Below are positions 1,639-52,381 of a stretch of 64,000 nt of DNA, in pieces. The DNA lies in the NCBI GenBank assembly GCA_018303545.1, contig JAGVXY010000009.1, forward strand, positions 24,350 through 88,349, read 5' to 3'. Numbering within the stretch: position 1 is the stretch's first letter; every line of letters starts with the position of its first letter. Under the pieces are notes generated by a model that had not been told where the DNA came from, did not search any database, and saw only the letters and a program-made list of their open reading frames with translations. This stretch comes from Candidatus Woesearchaeota archaeon (lineage in GTDB: Archaea > Nanobdellota > Nanobdellia > SCGC-AAA011-G17 > JAGVXY01). The position numbers were made by a program, and so were the translations under genes.

Positions 1639-2265
1639 TTATGGGAAATAAACAACTTTTTTCTTGCTAGAGTATTTGTATATCCCTAAAAGAGCAATCA
1701 ATGCAATCAATATGCCTATGATATAACGGGCATATTGCCTTATATCCAATGTTTTAACTTTTGCATAATCAACAACACCTGCACCAGTAAGCTCTACAGA
1801 ATCGATTATTTCTTTATCTTCATCCAAATATTTCTTCTCATCAGGTGCTCTTTCTTCAGCAGTTAAATCCCTAATGGCAATAGTTGCCCTGCTCATATTT
1901 TCAATTTTCTTAACAGAAATTACATCTATGACGATATCATCAACCATGTCTCTATTAACATCCACCCTTAAGACTTCACCTTCAAGCGCAATAGACATAT
2001 ATGCAACAGGGTATCTTTTATCAGAATCGTCAGCAAAAGAAAATAGTTTAAAATCAATCCCTGGTTTGCTTCCTTCTGTTCTAATCTTATCTATTCCCAG
2101 AACGTGTGTCCCATCAAAAATATTGTGCAATTTTATTTCATCTTTTTCGCCCATTTCAAAGAACTGGACATTATTAAAAGAATCAGTTACGTCTATTCTT
2201 TCTGCAGCATAAACTACAGAACTTAACATAGCCAATACCATTAAAAACATTAAAATTTTTCTCAT
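1639..2265 (-). CDS. Secreted hypothetical protein with N-terminal signal peptide and C-terminal TM anchor
   Basis: The likely start is the internal Met (MRKILMFLMVLAMLSSVVYA), preceded by GGAGGGG. The C-terminal hydrophobic stretch is IIGILIALIALLGIY followed by KK. It lies in an operon with the ABC ATPase. Confidence 0.5.
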   Translation of the reverse strand: MRKILMFLMVLAMLSSVVYAAERIDVTDSFNNVQFFEMGEKDEIKLHNIFDGTHVLGIDKIRTEGSKPGIDFKLFSFADDSDKRYPVAYMSIALEGEVLRVDVNRDMVDDIVIDVISVKKIENMSRATIAIRDLTAEERAPDEKKYLDEDKEIIDSVELTGAGVVDYAKVKTLDIRQYARYIIGILIALIALLGIYKYSSKKKVVYFP

Positions 2266-2335
2266 GTAATCCCCTCCATAAATTTGATTGAACTCTTGAT
2301 TGTCTAGCTTTTTATAAAGATTTCTGTTTTTCGAA

Positions 2336-2385
2336 GCAATTATTCGAAAATCTTCCGGAAATAGCTTAAAAAGGCTTAAAAAACC
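2336..2385. promoter_or_regulatory. 50-bp conserved promoter/operator element, copy 1 (TTCCGGAA palindrome plus BRE/TATA-like aaaaggcttaaaaaa)
   Basis: 49/50 identical to 3669-3718. Both copies end exactly 20 nt before the first ATG of a + strand gene. Confidence 0.5.
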
Positions 2386-2543
2386 CAAAATTCAAGCATA
2401 AAAAGATGATAAATTGGAATATACATCTGCTGATTATTGTTTCACTTACGCTCTCCGTTTTCGTGGTTCCATTATGCATCCAAAGCGAAAGTTTTATAAA
2501 TAACCAATATTTAGGTTTATATGAACCAATAAAGTGGTTAAAT

Positions 2544-3164
2544 ATGATTACCGAAAAACAGCTAAAACTATTTGAAGTGTTTGCAAAAAAACCGTTTGCA
2601 GAACATATGCGGAAAGAGATAAAGAAAGAATCAAAAGAAAAATCAAACAACAAATTAGCATTGGTTATAAATCAATTAAAAAAAGAAAACGTGTTAATAG
2701 AGAGAAAAATTGGAAAATCTGGGCTTTTGACTCTTAATCTTGAAAATGATTTGACCTTTTATTATCTTGCCTTATCCAATGACAATCGGATTAATCGCCT
2801 TGCAAAGATTGCCTTAGAAAGTCTGAAAAAAGAAATTGCTGAAGATACACCTTTCTATTCAATTGTGATTTTTGGATCTTATGCGGCAAATGAGCAGAAA
2901 AAAGGTTCAGATTTGGACATAGCAATATTTATTGAAAATGAGGGAAAAAGAAAACAGATAGAAGCATCAGCAAATAGTGCCAAATTAAAAAGTATTCTTG
3001 AAATGGATGTTCATATTATACCAAAAGCAGAAATGCTTGATATGCTAACCAATAAAGAAGAAAATTTAGGCAAGCAGATAGCACGAAAACACTTGGCCGT
3101 TCATAATCAGGGGATATTTTACAATATAATCAAAGAGGGAATGAATCATGGATTCCGAATATAA
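2544..3164 (+). CDS. wHTH-fused minimal nucleotidyltransferase (MNT; HepT/MntA-type antitoxin-like)
   Basis: Pol-beta NTase motif IVIFGSYAANEQKKGSDLDIAIF. The N-terminal winged-helix begins at the internal Met 2544 (MITEKQLKLFEVFAKKP). The ORF-track start at 2406 adds an implausible hydrophobic extension. It overlaps the downstream HEPN gene by 17 bp. Confidence 0.75.
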   Translation: MITEKQLKLFEVFAKKPFAEHMRKEIKKESKEKSNNKLALVINQLKKENVLIERKIGKSGLLTLNLENDLTFYYLALSNDNRINRLAKIALESLKKEIAEDTPFYSIVIFGSYAANEQKKGSDLDIAIFIENEGKRKQIEASANSAKLKSILEMDVHIIPKAEMLDMLTNKEENLGKQIARKHLAVHNQGIFYNIIKEGMNHGFRI

Positions 3165-3636
3165 AATTTATCTTGCAAGAGCTCAAAACGAATTAAACTT
3201 GTCAACTATGATTCAAAAAATAAGTGATGATAAAAATATGCAGATTGAAATCTTCGGAGTGAAAGAAGACACTTATTATAGTGCAACAACCTCTCATGCA
3301 TACTATTCAATATTCTACGCCGCAAAAGCATATCTTTTGCTAAAAGGGATTAAAACGCAGGCACCTGAAGAGCATAAGAAAACGTTTGATGAGTTTTCAA
3401 AGCTTGTTGATAAAGGCATAGTTGATGTTGAATTGCTGAAGATTTATCAGAACATGATAGTTAAAGCAGATACACTCTTGCACATTTTTGAATTTGAGAA
3501 AAGCAAGCGGGGGAAGTTTACTTACAAAAGAATACCGCAGGCAAACCAAGAGCCAGCGCAAGAAAGTATCGAGAACGCGCAAATATTTTTTAACAATATA
3601 TTCAGATTATGCGAAAAGACTAAGGAAGATTCCTAA
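3148..3636 (+). CDS. HEPN domain protein (toxin partner of MNT)
   Basis: Archaeal HEPN signature AYYSIFYAAKAYLLLKGIKTQAPEEHKKTFDEF. Translationally coupled to the upstream MNT. Confidence 0.7.
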   Translation: MDSEYKIYLARAQNELNLSTMIQKISDDKNMQIEIFGVKEDTYYSATTSHAYYSIFYAAKAYLLLKGIKTQAPEEHKKTFDEFSKLVDKGIVDVELLKIYQNMIVKADTLLHIFEFEKSKRGKFTYKRIPQANQEPAQESIENAQIFFNNIFRLCEKTKEDS

Positions 3637-3668
3637 ACCTTTGGTCGTAGTCTAAACTTTCTTTTTAG

Positions 3669-3718
3669 GCAATTATTCGAAAATCTTCCGGAAATAGCTC
3701 AAAAAGGCTTAAAAAACC
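3669..3718. promoter_or_regulatory. 50-bp conserved promoter/operator element, copy 2
   Basis: See copy 1. It lies 20 nt upstream of the PLD gene ATG at 3739. Confidence 0.5.
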
Positions 3719-3738
3719 AGTAATTTTAGCACAAGAAT

Positions 3739-4728
3739 ATGGTAAATTTCAATAAAACTATCTTAATTACTGCATTAATTGCGTTCTCTATTTTAATAGT
3801 ATTGCTCAACACCGGAGAACCAGTGCTAACTTCAAAAACAATAATTCAAGAAAAACCTGTAATAAAGGAATATGGCCCTGAAATAAAAGTCTATTTCTGT
3901 CAGATGGAAAACTGTAGTTTGAAATTAATAGAATATATTAAAAACGCAACTACAATTCATTGCGCATTTTTTGATTTAGACAATAAACCCATAATAAATG
4001 CATTATTAAATAAAAAAGATGTTAAAATTGTTCTTGATGATACAAGCAAAACAACTTATCCTTATGCAAGAACAGATAATCAAAATCAATTAAGTCATAA
4101 TAAATTTTGCGTTTTCGATTCTTCAATCATCTGGACTGGCAGCCAGAATCCAACAGATCGCTGTACTTATCTCAATGATAATAATGCAATAGTAATAGAA
4201 TCAAAAACTTTGGCAAAAAATTATGAGGCTGAATTCGTAGAGCTTTGGAATGGAATTTACGGCAGAGGTTACGAAATAAGCAACCCAATCATTTATTTTA
4301 ATGATAAAAAAATAGAAAATTATTTCTGTCCTGAAGATGATTGCAAAAAGCAGGTCTTAAAAACCTTAAACAGCGCATCAGAATCAATTTATATTCTAGC
4401 TTTCAGTCTTACATTAGATGAAATAGGTGATTTGTTAATAAAAAAACAATCTGACTTGGATATAAAGGGGGTCTTTGAAAGAACTCAAGTAAATAAGTAT
4501 CATGAATTTTATAAGCTGAATGATTCAAATATCTCGGTTAAGTGGGATTCAAATAAATATAACATGCACCACAAAGTTTTCATAATAGACAAAAAAATAG
4601 TTCTTACAGGTTCTGCTAATCCTACGCAAGGGGGCTATGAAAAGAACGATGAAAATATTTTGATAATTCATGATGAAACTATTGCAAATTATTACCTGAG
4701 AGAGTTTAATCGTATCTGGAACAGGTAA
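3739..4728 (+). CDS. Phospholipase D superfamily protein with two HKD motifs, N-terminal signal/TM
   Basis: Motifs HNKFCVFDSSIIWTGSQNPT and HHKVFIIDKKIVLTGSANPT, each HxKx4Dx6GSxN. N-terminal hydrophobic segment ILITALIAFSILIVLL. Confidence 0.8.
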   Translation: MVNFNKTILITALIAFSILIVLLNTGEPVLTSKTIIQEKPVIKEYGPEIKVYFCQMENCSLKLIEYIKNATTIHCAFFDLDNKPIINALLNKKDVKIVLDDTSKTTYPYARTDNQNQLSHNKFCVFDSSIIWTGSQNPTDRCTYLNDNNAIVIESKTLAKNYEAEFVELWNGIYGRGYEISNPIIYFNDKKIENYFCPEDDCKKQVLKTLNSASESIYILAFSLTLDEIGDLLIKKQSDLDIKGVFERTQVNKYHEFYKLNDSNISVKWDSNKYNMHHKVFIIDKKIVLTGSANPTQGGYEKNDENILIIHDETIANYYLREFNRIWNR

Positions 4729-40153: not shown

Positions 40154-40816
40154 TCATAATTCAACACTGCCGCTTAAGATAATTCCATTAAGAATATTCT
40201 CTCTAAGATTTTTATGTATTTCGTTCCATGACCCATAGAAATTTAAGCTTATTTTTCTCTCAAGCTTTTTTTCAAAATTGACCGTATTTACTTCTTTATC
40301 TTTAATTCCAATAATAGCAATATCAATATCCGAACAAAGTTCACCTACTTCATTGGCAATTATGTCTTCTCCTCTCGAATAGCTGCCAAATAAGACTATT
40401 GAAGCGCCGGGAAACAGTTCGTATAAGTATTCGGAAAGTCCAGATTCATATATCATCCTTAGATTTTCTGATCTTTTAAGCTCTATTGCTTTTGAATTAT
40501 TTCTGTTAAGCTCGACCATTGTTAAATTAATTGTTTTTGATTTTTTTATCATAACGAGCTCATCTTTACAAAATACCGTCAAAGAATTCGAAACAGCTGT
40601 CGGAGATGCTTTTAGCAATTTTGCTAGTTCCCGCATATTCATAGGCTGTCCGACTTTCAGGCAAAGTAATCTGAAAAGTTTAGCTTGTAAGCGTGTCCAA
40701 ATAAATTTATATATATCCATTTTATTAGATACGTATCCACTAAAGTTTATATAACTTTCGGTTTTATCATAATAATCAGTTTCAATTTCAGACGCAAGGC
40801 TCATAGTAATTCTCAA
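40154..40816 (-). CDS. wHTH-fused minimal nucleotidyltransferase (second of three in the window)
   Basis: IVLFGSYSRGEDI...SDIDIAII, N-terminal wHTH, C-terminal ENILNGIILSG shared with 48722..49252. Confidence 0.7.
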   Translation of the reverse strand: MRITMSLASEIETDYYDKTESYINFSGYVSNKMDIYKFIWTRLQAKLFRLLCLKVGQPMNMRELAKLLKASPTAVSNSLTVFCKDELVMIKKSKTINLTMVELNRNNSKAIELKRSENLRMIYESGLSEYLYELFPGASIVLFGSYSRGEDIIANEVGELCSDIDIAIIGIKDKEVNTVNFEKKLERKISLNFYGSWNEIHKNLRENILNGIILSGSVEL

Positions 40817-40964
40817 GACAGTTATTAACTCAATTTAAGGGGGCTTGTAGGTTTATATGACTTCTCCAAGAAAAATCGGAAGATTTTCGATAAGTAATCA
40901 ATTAATATATCTAAGAAAAAATGAAGAACCTCGGACTAAAGTCCGAGGTATCTCGAAGATAAAA

Positions 40965-41369
40965 TTACCACGCACCTTGCGAAGATGAGATGTAGTGCTT
41001 GATGGTTTCTGTGGTCACGTTTCCAACGCTTCTGAAGAATTTGCCTGAACTCCAAAAATGTCCTCTTCTGAAGTGTCTCCTCAGCCAAGGATGCTGCTTA
41101 AAAATTCTGTAAGCAGAATATCCTTTGAATAATTGCAGCGCCTTGGAAACGCTTATTGTGTGTGGAACTTCGACAAAGATATGTATGTGGTCCGGCTGTA
41201 CGATGAGTTCATACACCTCAAATTTGTGCTTTGCAGCAACTTCCCGAAGGACTTGCTCGCAAAGATCCCTAAGTTTTGCGAATTTGAACGGATCTTTGGC
41301 ATATTTTGGCTTCCATACAAAGTGAAATGCATTCTGTCCCGCTGCGTGTCTAAATCTATTTATTTCCAT
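40965..41369 (-). CDS. tnpA: IS200/IS605-family Y1 (HUH) transposase TnpA
   Basis: HUH motif HIHIFVEVP, catalytic Tyr region GYSAYRIF, 134 aa. Confidence 0.9.
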   Translation of the reverse strand: MEINRFRHAAGQNAFHFVWKPKYAKDPFKFAKLRDLCEQVLREVAAKHKFEVYELIVQPDHIHIFVEVPHTISVSKALQLFKGYSAYRIFKQHPWLRRHFRRGHFWSSGKFFRSVGNVTTETIKHYISSSQGAW

Positions 41370-49336: not shown

Positions 49337-52300
49337 TTACCTGTATGTTTTTACGCGGTATATTACCCAGGCAATTGCTAAGAGTATCAGCAAGATAAGC
49401 AGTATGATTAAGCTTACCTTAGTCCCTGTTCCAATTACCGCACCAGTAATCTGATTTCCTGCATCAGAGATGGCTTCACTATTTAATGCATCAATATCCT
49501 TAGTTTCCTCTGTGTTCGTTGGAATAATCACTGGTTCAGATATTGCAGGTACTATTACAGCAGGCACAGGCACAACAATACTGCTGCCCCCACTGCCGCC
49601 TCCCCCTCCACCGCCGCCAGGCGCCACGTAAGGCGCTGATCCAAATGCCCCAAATAAACTAAAGTGGGTCACATTTGCCCATACATAATCATTTATTGTA
49701 TCTATTCCCTGGTTAGGTTCCAACTGCCAATTTCCTAGAGTTTCATTGAAATAATATATTCTCAATGTATTCTCATCTATCCCTAAGGCATCTAATTCAG
49801 ACTGGTTGTAATAGATTTTTATTAAAGCCCATTCTAATGCCCCTTCTGTGTTTGTATCAATCTCAACATTGATACCTTTCAGATAAGTTAGTCCAGCTGT
49901 TGCCCCAGAAGGATCAACATCTGCGCCAGCAATAGTTACTGTTGATGTTACACTGCTATTTAGATAGAATGTAATATTTGTATCTGCTCCAGGTGCTTCA
50001 ATCTCTGTCATATTATAGGCATCAATCATAGTCTGCAATTGTTCAATTGAAGTCACATTTCCATTCAAATTTATTTCGGGATTATTATCCAAGATGATTG
50101 TGCAGCTTACAAGTTCCAAGACTCCGCCATCAAAAATTATGCCCTGACCATCTGTATCAATGGAAATATTGTTGTTTATGCATTTTGCATTGCCATCAAT
50201 CATCCAATAAACATACATAGGCCTATTATCATAGATACCCCACGCCCCATTGTTATCAAACACACCGTTAGTCAAATGGGCGATAGAATTGCCATCGACA
50301 TACAATCCTGTATTTGCTGGAGGTAGGCAAACATCCATAACACTATCATCATTCGCATTAAATGTAGGATTAATGATAGTCTCTTCAGATGAAACTAGTC
50401 TCATACCCTCACAGTTATATTCTGCTAAGTTATTTTCAAATATATTGCCATTTGAATCAGCGGAGAATATTCCTATTTCATTGTATCGAACTGTATTCTC
50501 ATAGATATTATTGCCTGTTGAACTTCCAATATCAAGGCCATTTCCTATGCCCCCAATGGCAGTTCTTGTATCAAACAAATCACCTGTGTTATTTGCAATA
50601 GTATTGCTGTAGACCTGATTGTTATCGGAATTCGAGAGTCTTATTCCTGCATATAAATTGCCAGTAACTGTATTATCATAAATGACATTCTCTGCAGAAT
50701 ACTTGATATTTATTCCGACTTTTGCATCACGGACCACATTGCCTGAGATTGTGTTGTTATCTGAATTCAGCCTTACATCAATATTGTGCTGGAAAGTACC
50801 TTGTCCATTATTGTTGTGCACATAGTTGTCCAAAATCTGATTATTACTGGACTCCTTCAAATAAATTCCTCTGTCAAAACCCGAAATGGCACAATTCTTA
50901 ACCATAATATCGGATCTGCCTGCAACATAAATCCCATTGCCAGAATCACCGGTAATCGAATGTTTATTGCAGTTCAAGGCAATGTCATCTGCACCAATAT
51001 TTAATCCATTTATTGTTGCACCCTTTCCAGGTAATCTACAGTCAATATCTTTCTCCAATGTCAAATCTTCTTTGATTGTATCTCCGCACTGAACATTGCT
51101 TCCGTCAATAAGATTAACAATGAAAGTATGGCTTGAATCTTCAATTATTGAATTTCCTGCAAGGTCTTCTGCTCCACTTACAGTAATTGTTTCAGTTGTT
51201 AGATCAACTCTTGGCAAAGAATAAACAAAACAGAATGTTTCTGAAAGTTTATCTCTGCAATCATCAACAGTTTGAGCTCCGCCGTCAGGGCTTACTGTGA
51301 TAGCAGGAATATTAGTTATATATTCGCTGAATATTACTCTAATTTCTGGTTGTGAATCCTTATCATATATTACTCCATCAGAGCTTACAGAAACAATAGT
51401 AGGAATTACGGTATCAACAGTGAACCCTGAAACATCAAGGTGCCCAGAATTTCCGGCATTATCTGTAAGTACCAGTGCACAATCCAAATATATGTCATCT
51501 CCTAACGTATTAAAGGTAATAGTCTGTGTTCCTGCAGTATACTCTTGTTCAATTGAGGTGCATGCACCATTAAATTGTAAAAGACCTGCCTCATCTGTGT
51601 TAAAAGTATAATCTGGGGTATTGTCATTGGTATTTACTGGCACAGGAATTATTTCTGTTAAAACCGGTGCAGTATTATCTACAATTACATTTACCTTATT
51701 AGATGAAAAAACATTTCCGGTATTATCATAAGCTTCAACCCATAAGCTATAGGGGCCATCAGCAACAGAAGTTGTATCCCATTCAATGGAATATAAACCA
51801 TTTAAGTCACTATAAATTCCACGGCCTATGAATACATTTGAACCGCCATTCACAAACCAAAAATTAACATAATCGATTTTACTGGCTTTGTCATTAGCAT
51901 CCGCATTGATAGTAATTAGTTTGTTTAAATATTTATTTTCTTCCGGAAAAATTATAGTTGCAACTGGTGCAGTATTATCTAATCTTACATCAATTAATTT
52001 TTCAGGTGTTTCAATATTTCCAGCATTATCAACGGAATAATAAGAAATTGCATAAGTGCCCTCGTCACTTATGGAGATGGAATTTCCAACGATGGGTTTG
52101 GAATCATCAATGGAATAATATGTATTACTGCAACCACTGCCACCAATGCCATCATCACAAGTTAAGGTAATTGTAAATGGATTATTTTGCCAACCACTGG
52201 GAGCGTCATCCGTGGTAGCTGGAGCTGTAACATCTCCTACAACCATCGCACTGCCTCCGCTAACACTAAAAATAATCATAGCTATTAATAAGACTGAAAT

Positions 52301-52381
52301 AAAAATTGATCTTCTATTGTTTGTCATAATCTTCGTCCCCCAACATTTCATTTGATATAATTTTTTCGAAAGCGTAAACAT
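49337..52381 (-). CDS. Giant (1014 aa) surface protein with right-handed parallel beta-helix repeats, Gly-rich stalk and C-terminal TM anchor
   Basis: Signal/TM N-terminus. PbH1-type repeats (NNNGQGTFQHNIDVRLNSDNNTISGNVVRDAKVGINIKYSAENVIYDNTVTGN...). GGGGGGGGSGGSS stalk, then IILLILLILLAIAWVIY followed by RVKTYR. Confidence 0.65.
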   Translation of the reverse strand: MFTLSKKLYQMKCWGTKIMTNNRRSIFISVLLIAMIIFSVSGGSAMVVGDVTAPATTDDAPSGWQNNPFTITLTCDDGIGGSGCSNTYYSIDDSKPIVGNSISISDEGTYAISYYSVDNAGNIETPEKLIDVRLDNTAPVATIIFPEENKYLNKLITINADANDKASKIDYVNFWFVNGGSNVFIGRGIYSDLNGLYSIEWDTTSVADGPYSLWVEAYDNTGNVFSSNKVNVIVDNTAPVLTEIIPVPVNTNDNTPDYTFNTDEAGLLQFNGACTSIEQEYTAGTQTITFNTLGDDIYLDCALVLTDNAGNSGHLDVSGFTVDTVIPTIVSVSSDGVIYDKDSQPEIRVIFSEYITNIPAITVSPDGGAQTVDDCRDKLSETFCFVYSLPRVDLTTETITVSGAEDLAGNSIIEDSSHTFIVNLIDGSNVQCGDTIKEDLTLEKDIDCRLPGKGATINGLNIGADDIALNCNKHSITGDSGNGIYVAGRSDIMVKNCAISGFDRGIYLKESSNNQILDNYVHNNNGQGTFQHNIDVRLNSDNNTISGNVVRDAKVGINIKYSAENVIYDNTVTGNLYAGIRLSNSDNNQVYSNTIANNTGDLFDTRTAIGGIGNGLDIGSSTGNNIYENTVRYNEIGIFSADSNGNIFENNLAEYNCEGMRLVSSEETIINPTFNANDDSVMDVCLPPANTGLYVDGNSIAHLTNGVFDNNGAWGIYDNRPMYVYWMIDGNAKCINNNISIDTDGQGIIFDGGVLELVSCTIILDNNPEINLNGNVTSIEQLQTMIDAYNMTEIEAPGADTNITFYLNSSVTSTVTIAGADVDPSGATAGLTYLKGINVEIDTNTEGALEWALIKIYYNQSELDALGIDENTLRIYYFNETLGNWQLEPNQGIDTINDYVWANVTHFSLFGAFGSAPYVAPGGGGGGGGSGGSSIVVPVPAVIVPAISEPVIIPTNTEETKDIDALNSEAISDAGNQITGAVIGTGTKVSLIILLILLILLAIAWVIYRVKTYR

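Follow-up and report, generated by a model that had tools for sequence, protein, structure and literature searches.

A near-identical 50-nt promoter repeat around an MNT/HEPN-like cassette in a Woesearchaeota archaeon, with insertion into a gene start as its probable origin

The repeated promoter and gene start

The locus considered here lies in a 64,000-nt stretch (the window) of contig JAGVXY010000009.1 from a Candidatus Woesearchaeota archaeon (DPANN), a metagenome scaffold from groundwater (Rifle aquifer). A 50-nt element, GCAATTATTCGAAAATCTTCCGGAAATAGCT(T/C)AAAAAGGCTTAAAAAACC, hereafter the 50-mer, occurs in it twice: copy A stands ahead of a cassette encoding an MNT nucleotidyltransferase and a HEPN-domain partner, and copy B ahead of a PLD-family gene (Table 1). 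An earlier note, made from the sequence alone, had described a duplicated promoter/operator that drives two accessory genes at identical spacing. Its positions and counts are exact: the copies agree at 49 of 50 positions, the sole difference being T2367 versus C3700, and each ends 20 nt 5′ of an ATG (2406 and 3739). Both copies, 1333 nt apart, are present in at least 10 independent assemblies from one population, and the two-copy structure is therefore not an assembly artefact. The 10 population contigs differ from the window by just 0.1-0.25%, strain variation too small to be informative on constraint in the 50-mer. A search of the window for further copies recovered at up to 3 mismatches only the two known ones, against 0.00 expected (none in 100 shuffles). 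The perfect 8-nt palindrome that the note had pointed out, TTCCGGAA, is present in both copies (2353-2360 in copy A); the window holds four such palindromes versus 0.78 expected, two of the four being the duplicates themselves, and there is little dyad symmetry past the 8 nt. Another lies within TTCTTCCGGAAAA at 51939-51950, inside a 1014-aa open reading frame (ORF; 49337-52381), and is probably a chance occurrence.

Table 1. Features of the locus (positions in the window; BRE, B recognition element; wHTH, winged helix-turn-helix)
Feature	Position	Strand	Details
BRE/TATA GAAATCTTTATAAAAA of the divergent 208-aa secreted-protein gene (1639-2265)	2309..2324	-	13.9 bits; 43 nt before ATG 2265
50-mer copy A	2336..2385	+	upstream half 2336-2368 with TCGAAAATCTTCCGGAA and TTCCGGAA; predicted BRE/TATA AAAAGGCTTAAAAAAC 2369-2384
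Diverged part of the duplication: 20-nt spacer, ATG 2406 and 19 codons of a relic PLD signal anchor, MINWNIHLLIIVSLTLSVF	2386..2462	+	12/20 and 37/57 identical to 3719-3795
252-aa ORF of gene finders	2406..3164	+	46 upstream codons in frame into wHTH-MNT
Putative mobile wHTH-MNT/HEPN cassette	2478..3667	+	nucleotide homology to other Woesearchaeota cassettes plus conserved T-run
Cassette BRE/TATA GAAAGTTTTATAAATA	2487..2502	+	15.9 bits, top 3 in window; 41 nt before ATG 2544
Two 16-nt palindromes AACCAATAnnnnGGTT	2501..2516, 2524..2539	+	half-sites invariant in 5 loci
wHTH-MNT nucleotidyltransferase, 206 aa	2544..3164	+	GSx10DxD; Pfam NTP_transf_2 3.9e-12
HEPN-domain partner, 162 aa	3148..3636	+	17-nt overlap with MNT; Pfam HEPN 5.4e-05, 23.8 bits versus cut-off 22
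CTTTTTA T-run, right end of cassette	3661..3667	+	conserved downstream of the HEPN stop codon in L044 and L046
50-mer copy B	3669..3718	+	predicted BRE/TATA 3702-3717; palindrome 3686-3693
PLD-family gene, intact	3739..4728	+	two PLDc_2 domains (Pfam 1.1e-35), N-terminal membrane anchor

The promoter part of this description is supported by the 3′ end of the 50-mer. We derived a 16-nt promoter matrix (consensus GAAAGGTTTATAAATA) from the window, using 39 upstream regions and leaving out both 50-mer genes, and obtained 12.3 bits for AAAAGGCTTAAAAAAC; the 95th and 99th percentiles for random 80-mers are 8.0 and 12.3. With its end 21 nt from the ATG, the motif falls in the modal class of the window (18 of 41 genes at 18-23 nt), and these 3′ 16 nt are well supported in silico as a predicted BRE/TATA promoter. 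The centre of the TATA box lies ~27 nt before the start codon; given the usual archaeal TATA-to-start distance of ~28 nt (PMC8553660), we infer a leaderless or near-leaderless mRNA. The operator part fared less well, as scans for sub-motifs with up to 3 mismatches found no convincing further copy of the operator-like half in the window. That the 50-mer acts as an RNA element is unlikely: an Rfam scan of 2200-3900 at E ≤ 1 gave no match, and folds at the locus are no better than those of shuffled sequences (z = 0.3 to 1.0; z = 0.3 for the 50-mer).

The upstream half of copy A is flanked by divergent core promoters, its own on the plus strand and that of the 208-aa secreted-protein gene on the minus strand. 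The latter lies 11 nt from copy A and is separated from ATG 2265 by a Shine-Dalgarno-like run, GGAGGGG. Across the window, the 18 genes with the GAAAGGTTTATAAATA motif 18-23 nt before their ATG have no Shine-Dalgarno sequence, and genes with the motif at 35-54 nt often carry GGAGG-like runs. These distances suggest that this DPANN archaeon makes both leaderless and leadered transcripts.

Similarity between the two sites continues beyond the 50-mer. The repeat is ungapped and ~126 nt long, joining 2336 to ~2461 with 3669 to ~3794; identity is 98% in the 50-mer, 60% in the spacer and 65% over the ATG and 19 codons, and past 2462 it is random (8/21, then 17/60). The spacer and codons together, with 49 of 77 positions identical, exceed all 2484 control gene-start pairs of the window, which average 25 and reach at most 40, and also every pair of genes encoding hydrophobic N-termini (at most 38). 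Both ORFs open with a similar membrane anchor, MINWNIHLLIIVSLTLSVF from 2406 and MVNFNKTILITALIAFSIL in PLD. Thus the duplication took in the predicted promoter and, with it, the spacer, the start codon and the signal anchor. Since the spacer, ATG and 19 codons were copied along with the 50-mer, the equal 20-nt spacing was inherited with the ~126-nt duplication and is no evidence of positional constraint, which removes identical spacing as the independent signal that it had been taken for. The profile is heterogeneous within the repeat, 98% in the 50-mer versus ~63% in the rest (Fisher p = 2e-6).

The PLD gene and the MNT/HEPN-like cassette

The PLD gene had been called accessory, a label that sits poorly with its 1505 homologues (E ≤ 1e-10) across DPANN archaea. 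All PLD homologues inspected have a signal or lipoprotein N-terminus, which suggests a secreted or surface enzyme. The closest homologue outside the population is ~50% identical, and the gene is single-copy in all five orthologue loci inspected. In L048, L051, L053 and L055 the orthologue lies downstream of a gene for a Lon-type protease, with an ORF of 188-194 aa between the two in L053 and L055. It is probably to PLD that the 50-mer promoter natively belongs.

For the nucleotidyltransferase, assignment is clear at the level of the domain (46.8 bits against Pfam NTP_transf_2, cut-off 21), and the GSx10DxD motif is present as GSYAANEQKKGSDLD. The start of its gene is another matter. The frame that opens at ATG 2406 runs without a stop through 46 codons to ATG 2544, so that gene callers annotate a 252-aa fusion. 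Among the best 120 homologues, however, 101 are proteins of 204-210 aa that start with MIT(E/K), and 94 are exactly 206 aa long, which backs the start at 2544 that the note had favoured. The true start is probably 2544, giving the 206-aa form, and for annotation the consequence is that the public 252-aa "nucleotidyltransferase" (P0121) is most likely a read-through. Of the 120 listed homologues, 19 (~16%) are likewise over-extended; the longer calls share just ~20 residues before that methionine, which we read as translated conserved non-coding promoter/operator DNA that is open by chance. Upstream of 2544 the note had supposed a 138-nt leader or a short ORF. An in-frame ORF does exist there, and appears to be the relic 5′ end of PLD (2406 to ~2462) followed by the cassette promoter and its 5′ untranslated region.

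The cassette seems to bring its own expression signals. Its predicted promoter, GAAAGTTTTATAAATA, is among the strongest of the window, contains TATAAATAACC, which is invariant in 5 loci, and stands at a distance from ATG 2544 that implies a short leader. Between promoter and gene lie the two palindromes AACCAATAnnnnGGTT, covered by a self-inverted blastn match over 2501-2540; it is plausible that they are autoregulatory operators for the wHTH domain of the MNT protein. At the right end, the CTTTTTA run is a likely terminator. With a conserved promoter (15.9 bits) and palindromes of its own, the MNT-HEPN pair has no need to be driven by copy A, as the note had proposed.

We class the pair as MNT/HEPN-like, not as a proven HepT/MntA system. 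The MNT protein scores 37.2 bits against NCBIfam MntA_antitoxin, under the cut-off of 60, and no Rx4-6H RNase motif was found in the 162-aa HEPN protein. PADLOC returned only generic nucleotidyltransferase and PLD (DrmC-like) similarities. The HEPN protein (3148-3636 here, with counterparts at 5605-6090 in L044, 5605-6093 in L045 and 1284-1769 in L047) is unusually conserved even though it lacks that motif, and the chemistry of this putative toxin may differ from that of HepT.

Comparison with other genomes separates the cassette from its surroundings. By blastn, 75-82% nucleotide identity extends from 2473/2483 to 3618/3629 in five loci (L043-L047) of four other Woesearchaeota genomes, with unrelated flanks and different neighbour genes in each. 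MNT is 70-83% and HEPN 81-83% identical across genomes, PLD orthologues only ~50%. We read the cassette as a horizontally mobile module. It encodes MNT and HEPN alone; there is no transposase or integrase in or beside it, its neighbours here being genes for an ABC ATPase, the 208-aa protein, PLD and ABCE1, and it was not found on viral contigs. The nearest transposase found is an IS200-like gene at 40965-41369. A hairpin with a 9-bp stem lies beside that gene, at 40929-40948. Mobilisation of the IS200/IS605 type was considered for the cassette and set aside, since no subterminal hairpin like this one could be read in the sequence of its ends.

Flanking repeats of the kind seen in the window are peculiar to it. 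Local alignment of the two cassette flanks gives z = 41 in the window, z = -0.6 to 0 in L043-L045 and z = 2.8 against shuffles in L046. In L046 a 14-nt exact direct repeat, TTAATGAAACAACT, surrounds the cassette (589-602 and 1925-1938); a short duplication of the target is a possible explanation, and so is chance.

Origin of the repeat

The arrangement is that of a repeat, an insert and a repeat: similarity to copy B ends at 2461, 16-20 nt before the conserved left end of the cassette, and copy B follows the cassette's T-run at a distance of 1-2 nt. We consider it probable that a mobile cassette inserted in the start of PLD and that promoter and gene start were duplicated on both sides of it. 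A structural by-product of such an insertion explains the pattern better than a single operator-promoter module serving two accessory genes. On this proposal the 50-mer would be the native PLD promoter, its BRE/TATA core starting transcription at or next to the ATG. The cassette, with its own promoter, palindromes and T-run, would have entered the first 20-25 codons of PLD, leaving ~126-146 nt of target (promoter, spacer, ATG and first codons) on both sides. Copy B would then keep PLD expressed downstream of the cassette's putative terminator, and copy A would remain in the original divergent intergenic region beside the 208-aa gene, heading the relic PLD start. If copy A is active, it should give a leaderless transcript from the relic start codon, with a reading frame that crosses the cassette promoter and continues into MNT-HEPN.

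A possible trace of the 50-mer was found before a distant PLD orthologue. The 12-mer AAAATCTTCCGG stands 46 nt before the ATG of P0015 (52% identity, in L049), versus 47 nt here, and in L049 it likewise lies between divergent TATA boxes; the divergent neighbours, the 208-aa protein of the window and the neighbour in L049, are not homologous. In the 136 kb of strand sequence scanned at related loci, no other 12-mer is shared with the 50-mer, and the presence of AAAATCTTCCGG at equal offset in one of five PLD orthologue loci has a chance probability, estimated post hoc from k-mer counts, of ~2e-4 to 4e-3.

Several points weigh against the insertion as we propose it. Beyond the 12-mer, the L049 promoter and the 50-mer show no overall alignment (P = 0.08), and the motif is missing at the other four PLD orthologues, which follow Lon in an operon and lack a separate promoter. 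Where the flanks of other cassette copies were aligned (L043-L046), there are no comparable flanking repeats. We found no empty site or close relative; neither the genome nor the metagenome DNA collections searched contain the source species. We also know of no transposition mechanism that duplicates more than 120 nt of its target. Promoter activity at both copies and the transcription start sites are inferred from sequence, as are the way and direction in which the duplication arose and any binding of a regulator.

The most awkward observation is the near-identity of the 50-mer itself. If ~20 of its positions were free to diverge at the rate of the flanks (36%), the probability of at most one difference would be 0.0015; as this holds even with 30 of 50 positions constrained, constraint on motifs alone does not explain the identity. 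Relic and PLD differ about equally often at the three codon positions (8/6/6 by hand count, no third-position excess), which does not discriminate among explanations. We favour short-tract gene conversion in an already conserved block, selection on both copies, or both; in the case of selection, the divergent 208-aa gene may be served by copy A as well. In a less likely alternative, the unit 2336-3668 entered as a circle by recombination in the 50-mer and the diverged PLD-like start came with it from a previous host.

Carried through to the whole locus, that alternative makes the 1333-bp unit an integrase-less element, inserted by homologous recombination or by a recombinase acting in trans, with copies A and B as attL and attR. 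The diverged 77 nt beside copy A would have been acquired at the PLD locus in an earlier, related host, and the element-borne promoter would keep PLD on. Prophage-type integration can carry an element-borne duplicate of a gene end, as e14 and phage 21 do in E. coli icd. Campbell-type integration yields exactly the topology observed, including a copy B that begins 1-2 nt past the cassette end; the two regimes of identity would need no long decay in situ, and the relic has the open frame, the freedom from indels and the hydrophobic anchor expected of a long-working gene start. We nevertheless regard it as unlikely. The unit has no integrase in or beside it, and the cassette as shared with other genomes excludes both the 50-mer and the PLD-like part and has no flanking repeats there. 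The differences between relic and PLD show no third-position excess; donor and recipient would still require a 49/50-identical block; and no second locus with the unit was found in the collections scanned. An extended form, in which the unit is a minimal integrative element that brings a replacement promoter for its target and captures the native promoter and start codon to make a membrane-anchored 252-aa MNT isoform beside the 206-aa form, strikes us as distinctly improbable.

A reading that builds on the earlier note is that the 50-mer is a selected promoter and operator module, at which a regulator binding the TTCCGGAA region co-controls MNT-HEPN and PLD, and possibly the divergent 208-aa gene, with the position relative to the start codons under functional constraint. 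The promoter match and its geometry agree with this, as do the perfect palindrome, the conservation of the 50-mer far above that of its duplicated flanks, and AAAATCTTCCGG at equal offset before a distant PLD orthologue. The upstream half also lies between divergent TATA boxes, in the manner of known archaeal upstream activating sequences (UAS; PMC2241852). A 14-nt exact match to the 50-mer, TCGAAAATCTTCCG at 40877-40890, inside the palindrome GAAAATC-TTCC-GATTTTTC, is found upstream of a second wHTH-nucleotidyltransferase gene (40154-40804), but an exact match of at least 14 nt is expected in 9% of simulated sequences (P = 0.09) and this one is within chance. That second gene lies on the minus strand directly downstream of the IS200-like Y1 transposase gene (the pair spanning 40154-41369). 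Against a shared module we count, in addition, the spacing inherited with the duplication, the conserved promoter and operator-like palindromes that MNT-HEPN already has, the failure of sub-motif searches to find anything convincing elsewhere in the 64 kb, and the fact that constraint on a binding site does not account for identity at every position. We hold the module as a whole unlikely. A shared regulator for MNT-HEPN and PLD is possible, and the ~32 nt upstream of the BRE/TATA may hold a regulator site around AAAATCTTCCGGAA.

It is most improbable that the 50-mer is a dispersed repeat, such as a miniature inverted-repeat transposable element, a repetitive extragenic palindrome or a mobile promoter-carrying element that landed before two genes: its high-identity boundaries are sharp and short-k-mer assemblies break at it (L002, L042), but these unitig breaks only reflect the repeat, there are just two copies in the window plus ~6 kb more of scaffold (~70 kb), terminal inverted repeats and a stable fold (z = 0.3) are lacking, and the similarity runs on into spacer and coding sequence. 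Exact 19-mer/16-mer scans, with AAATCTTCCGGAAATAGCT against metagenome and genome contigs and TCTTCCGGAAATAGCT against viral contigs, gave 8, 4 and 16 matches, all with unrelated flanks (19-31/50 identical) and attributable to chance, so that no other genome yielded a related copy; the source contig is not in these collections, so that the scans are uninformative on other contigs of this genome. A tandem duplication of PLD followed by replacement of the first copy was rejected as less parsimonious, as the replacement must stop exactly at 3667/3669; PLD is also single-copy at the five orthologue loci.

Insertion into the PLD start with duplication of promoter and gene start is thus the reading we carry forward, and it is a fairly ordinary finding, a duplication-by-insertion at a toxin-antitoxin cassette, that leaves current views of archaeal transcription and of toxin-antitoxin systems unchanged. 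The locus would record a cassette that landed in a DPANN gene and, through duplication of promoter and gene start, did not inactivate it. It also presents an island of near-perfect identity inside a decayed duplication, and gives PLD a recognisable predicted leaderless promoter. If a regulator does bind the upstream half, this half would rank among the first candidate cis-regulatory elements in Woesearchaeota.

Comparison with known systems

The predicted promoter resembles archaeal leaderless BRE/TATA promoters in having a purine-rich BRE-like run followed by an A/T-rich octamer, although its TATA box, CTTAAAAA, differs from the local consensus, TTTATAAA. For the upstream half, the nearest parallel is the UAS of GvpE at the gas-vesicle PA and PD promoters, an archaeal activating sequence between divergent promoters (PMC2241852). 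The likeness lies in a conserved block of ~20-30 nt immediately 5′ of the BRE between opposed TATA boxes, here at copy A and in L049. The difference is that our block is only a candidate site, and that its recurrence amounts to one 12-mer at one orthologue.

The repeat as a whole can be set beside the traces that e14 and phage 21 leave in E. coli icd. There, too, a near-identical block followed by a diverged end of the target gene forms direct repeats, and the target stays intact. Here it is the promoter and 5′ end of the gene that are duplicated and not the 3′ end; the insert is only ~1.2 kb, it carries no integrase, and other copies of the cassette are without such repeats.

The cassette itself is closest to the HepT/MntA type VII toxin-antitoxin systems. 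It shares with them two overlapping genes, of which that for the MNT protein with its GSx10DxD motif comes first and that for the HEPN partner second (PMC7641770), and an occurrence in varied genomic contexts that accords with their mobility (PMC2701414). It departs from them in the winged helix at the N-terminus of MNT, in a HEPN protein without Rx4-6H and in a sub-cut-off MntA score (37 versus 60 bits), and is set apart by a conservation across genomes that is unusually high.

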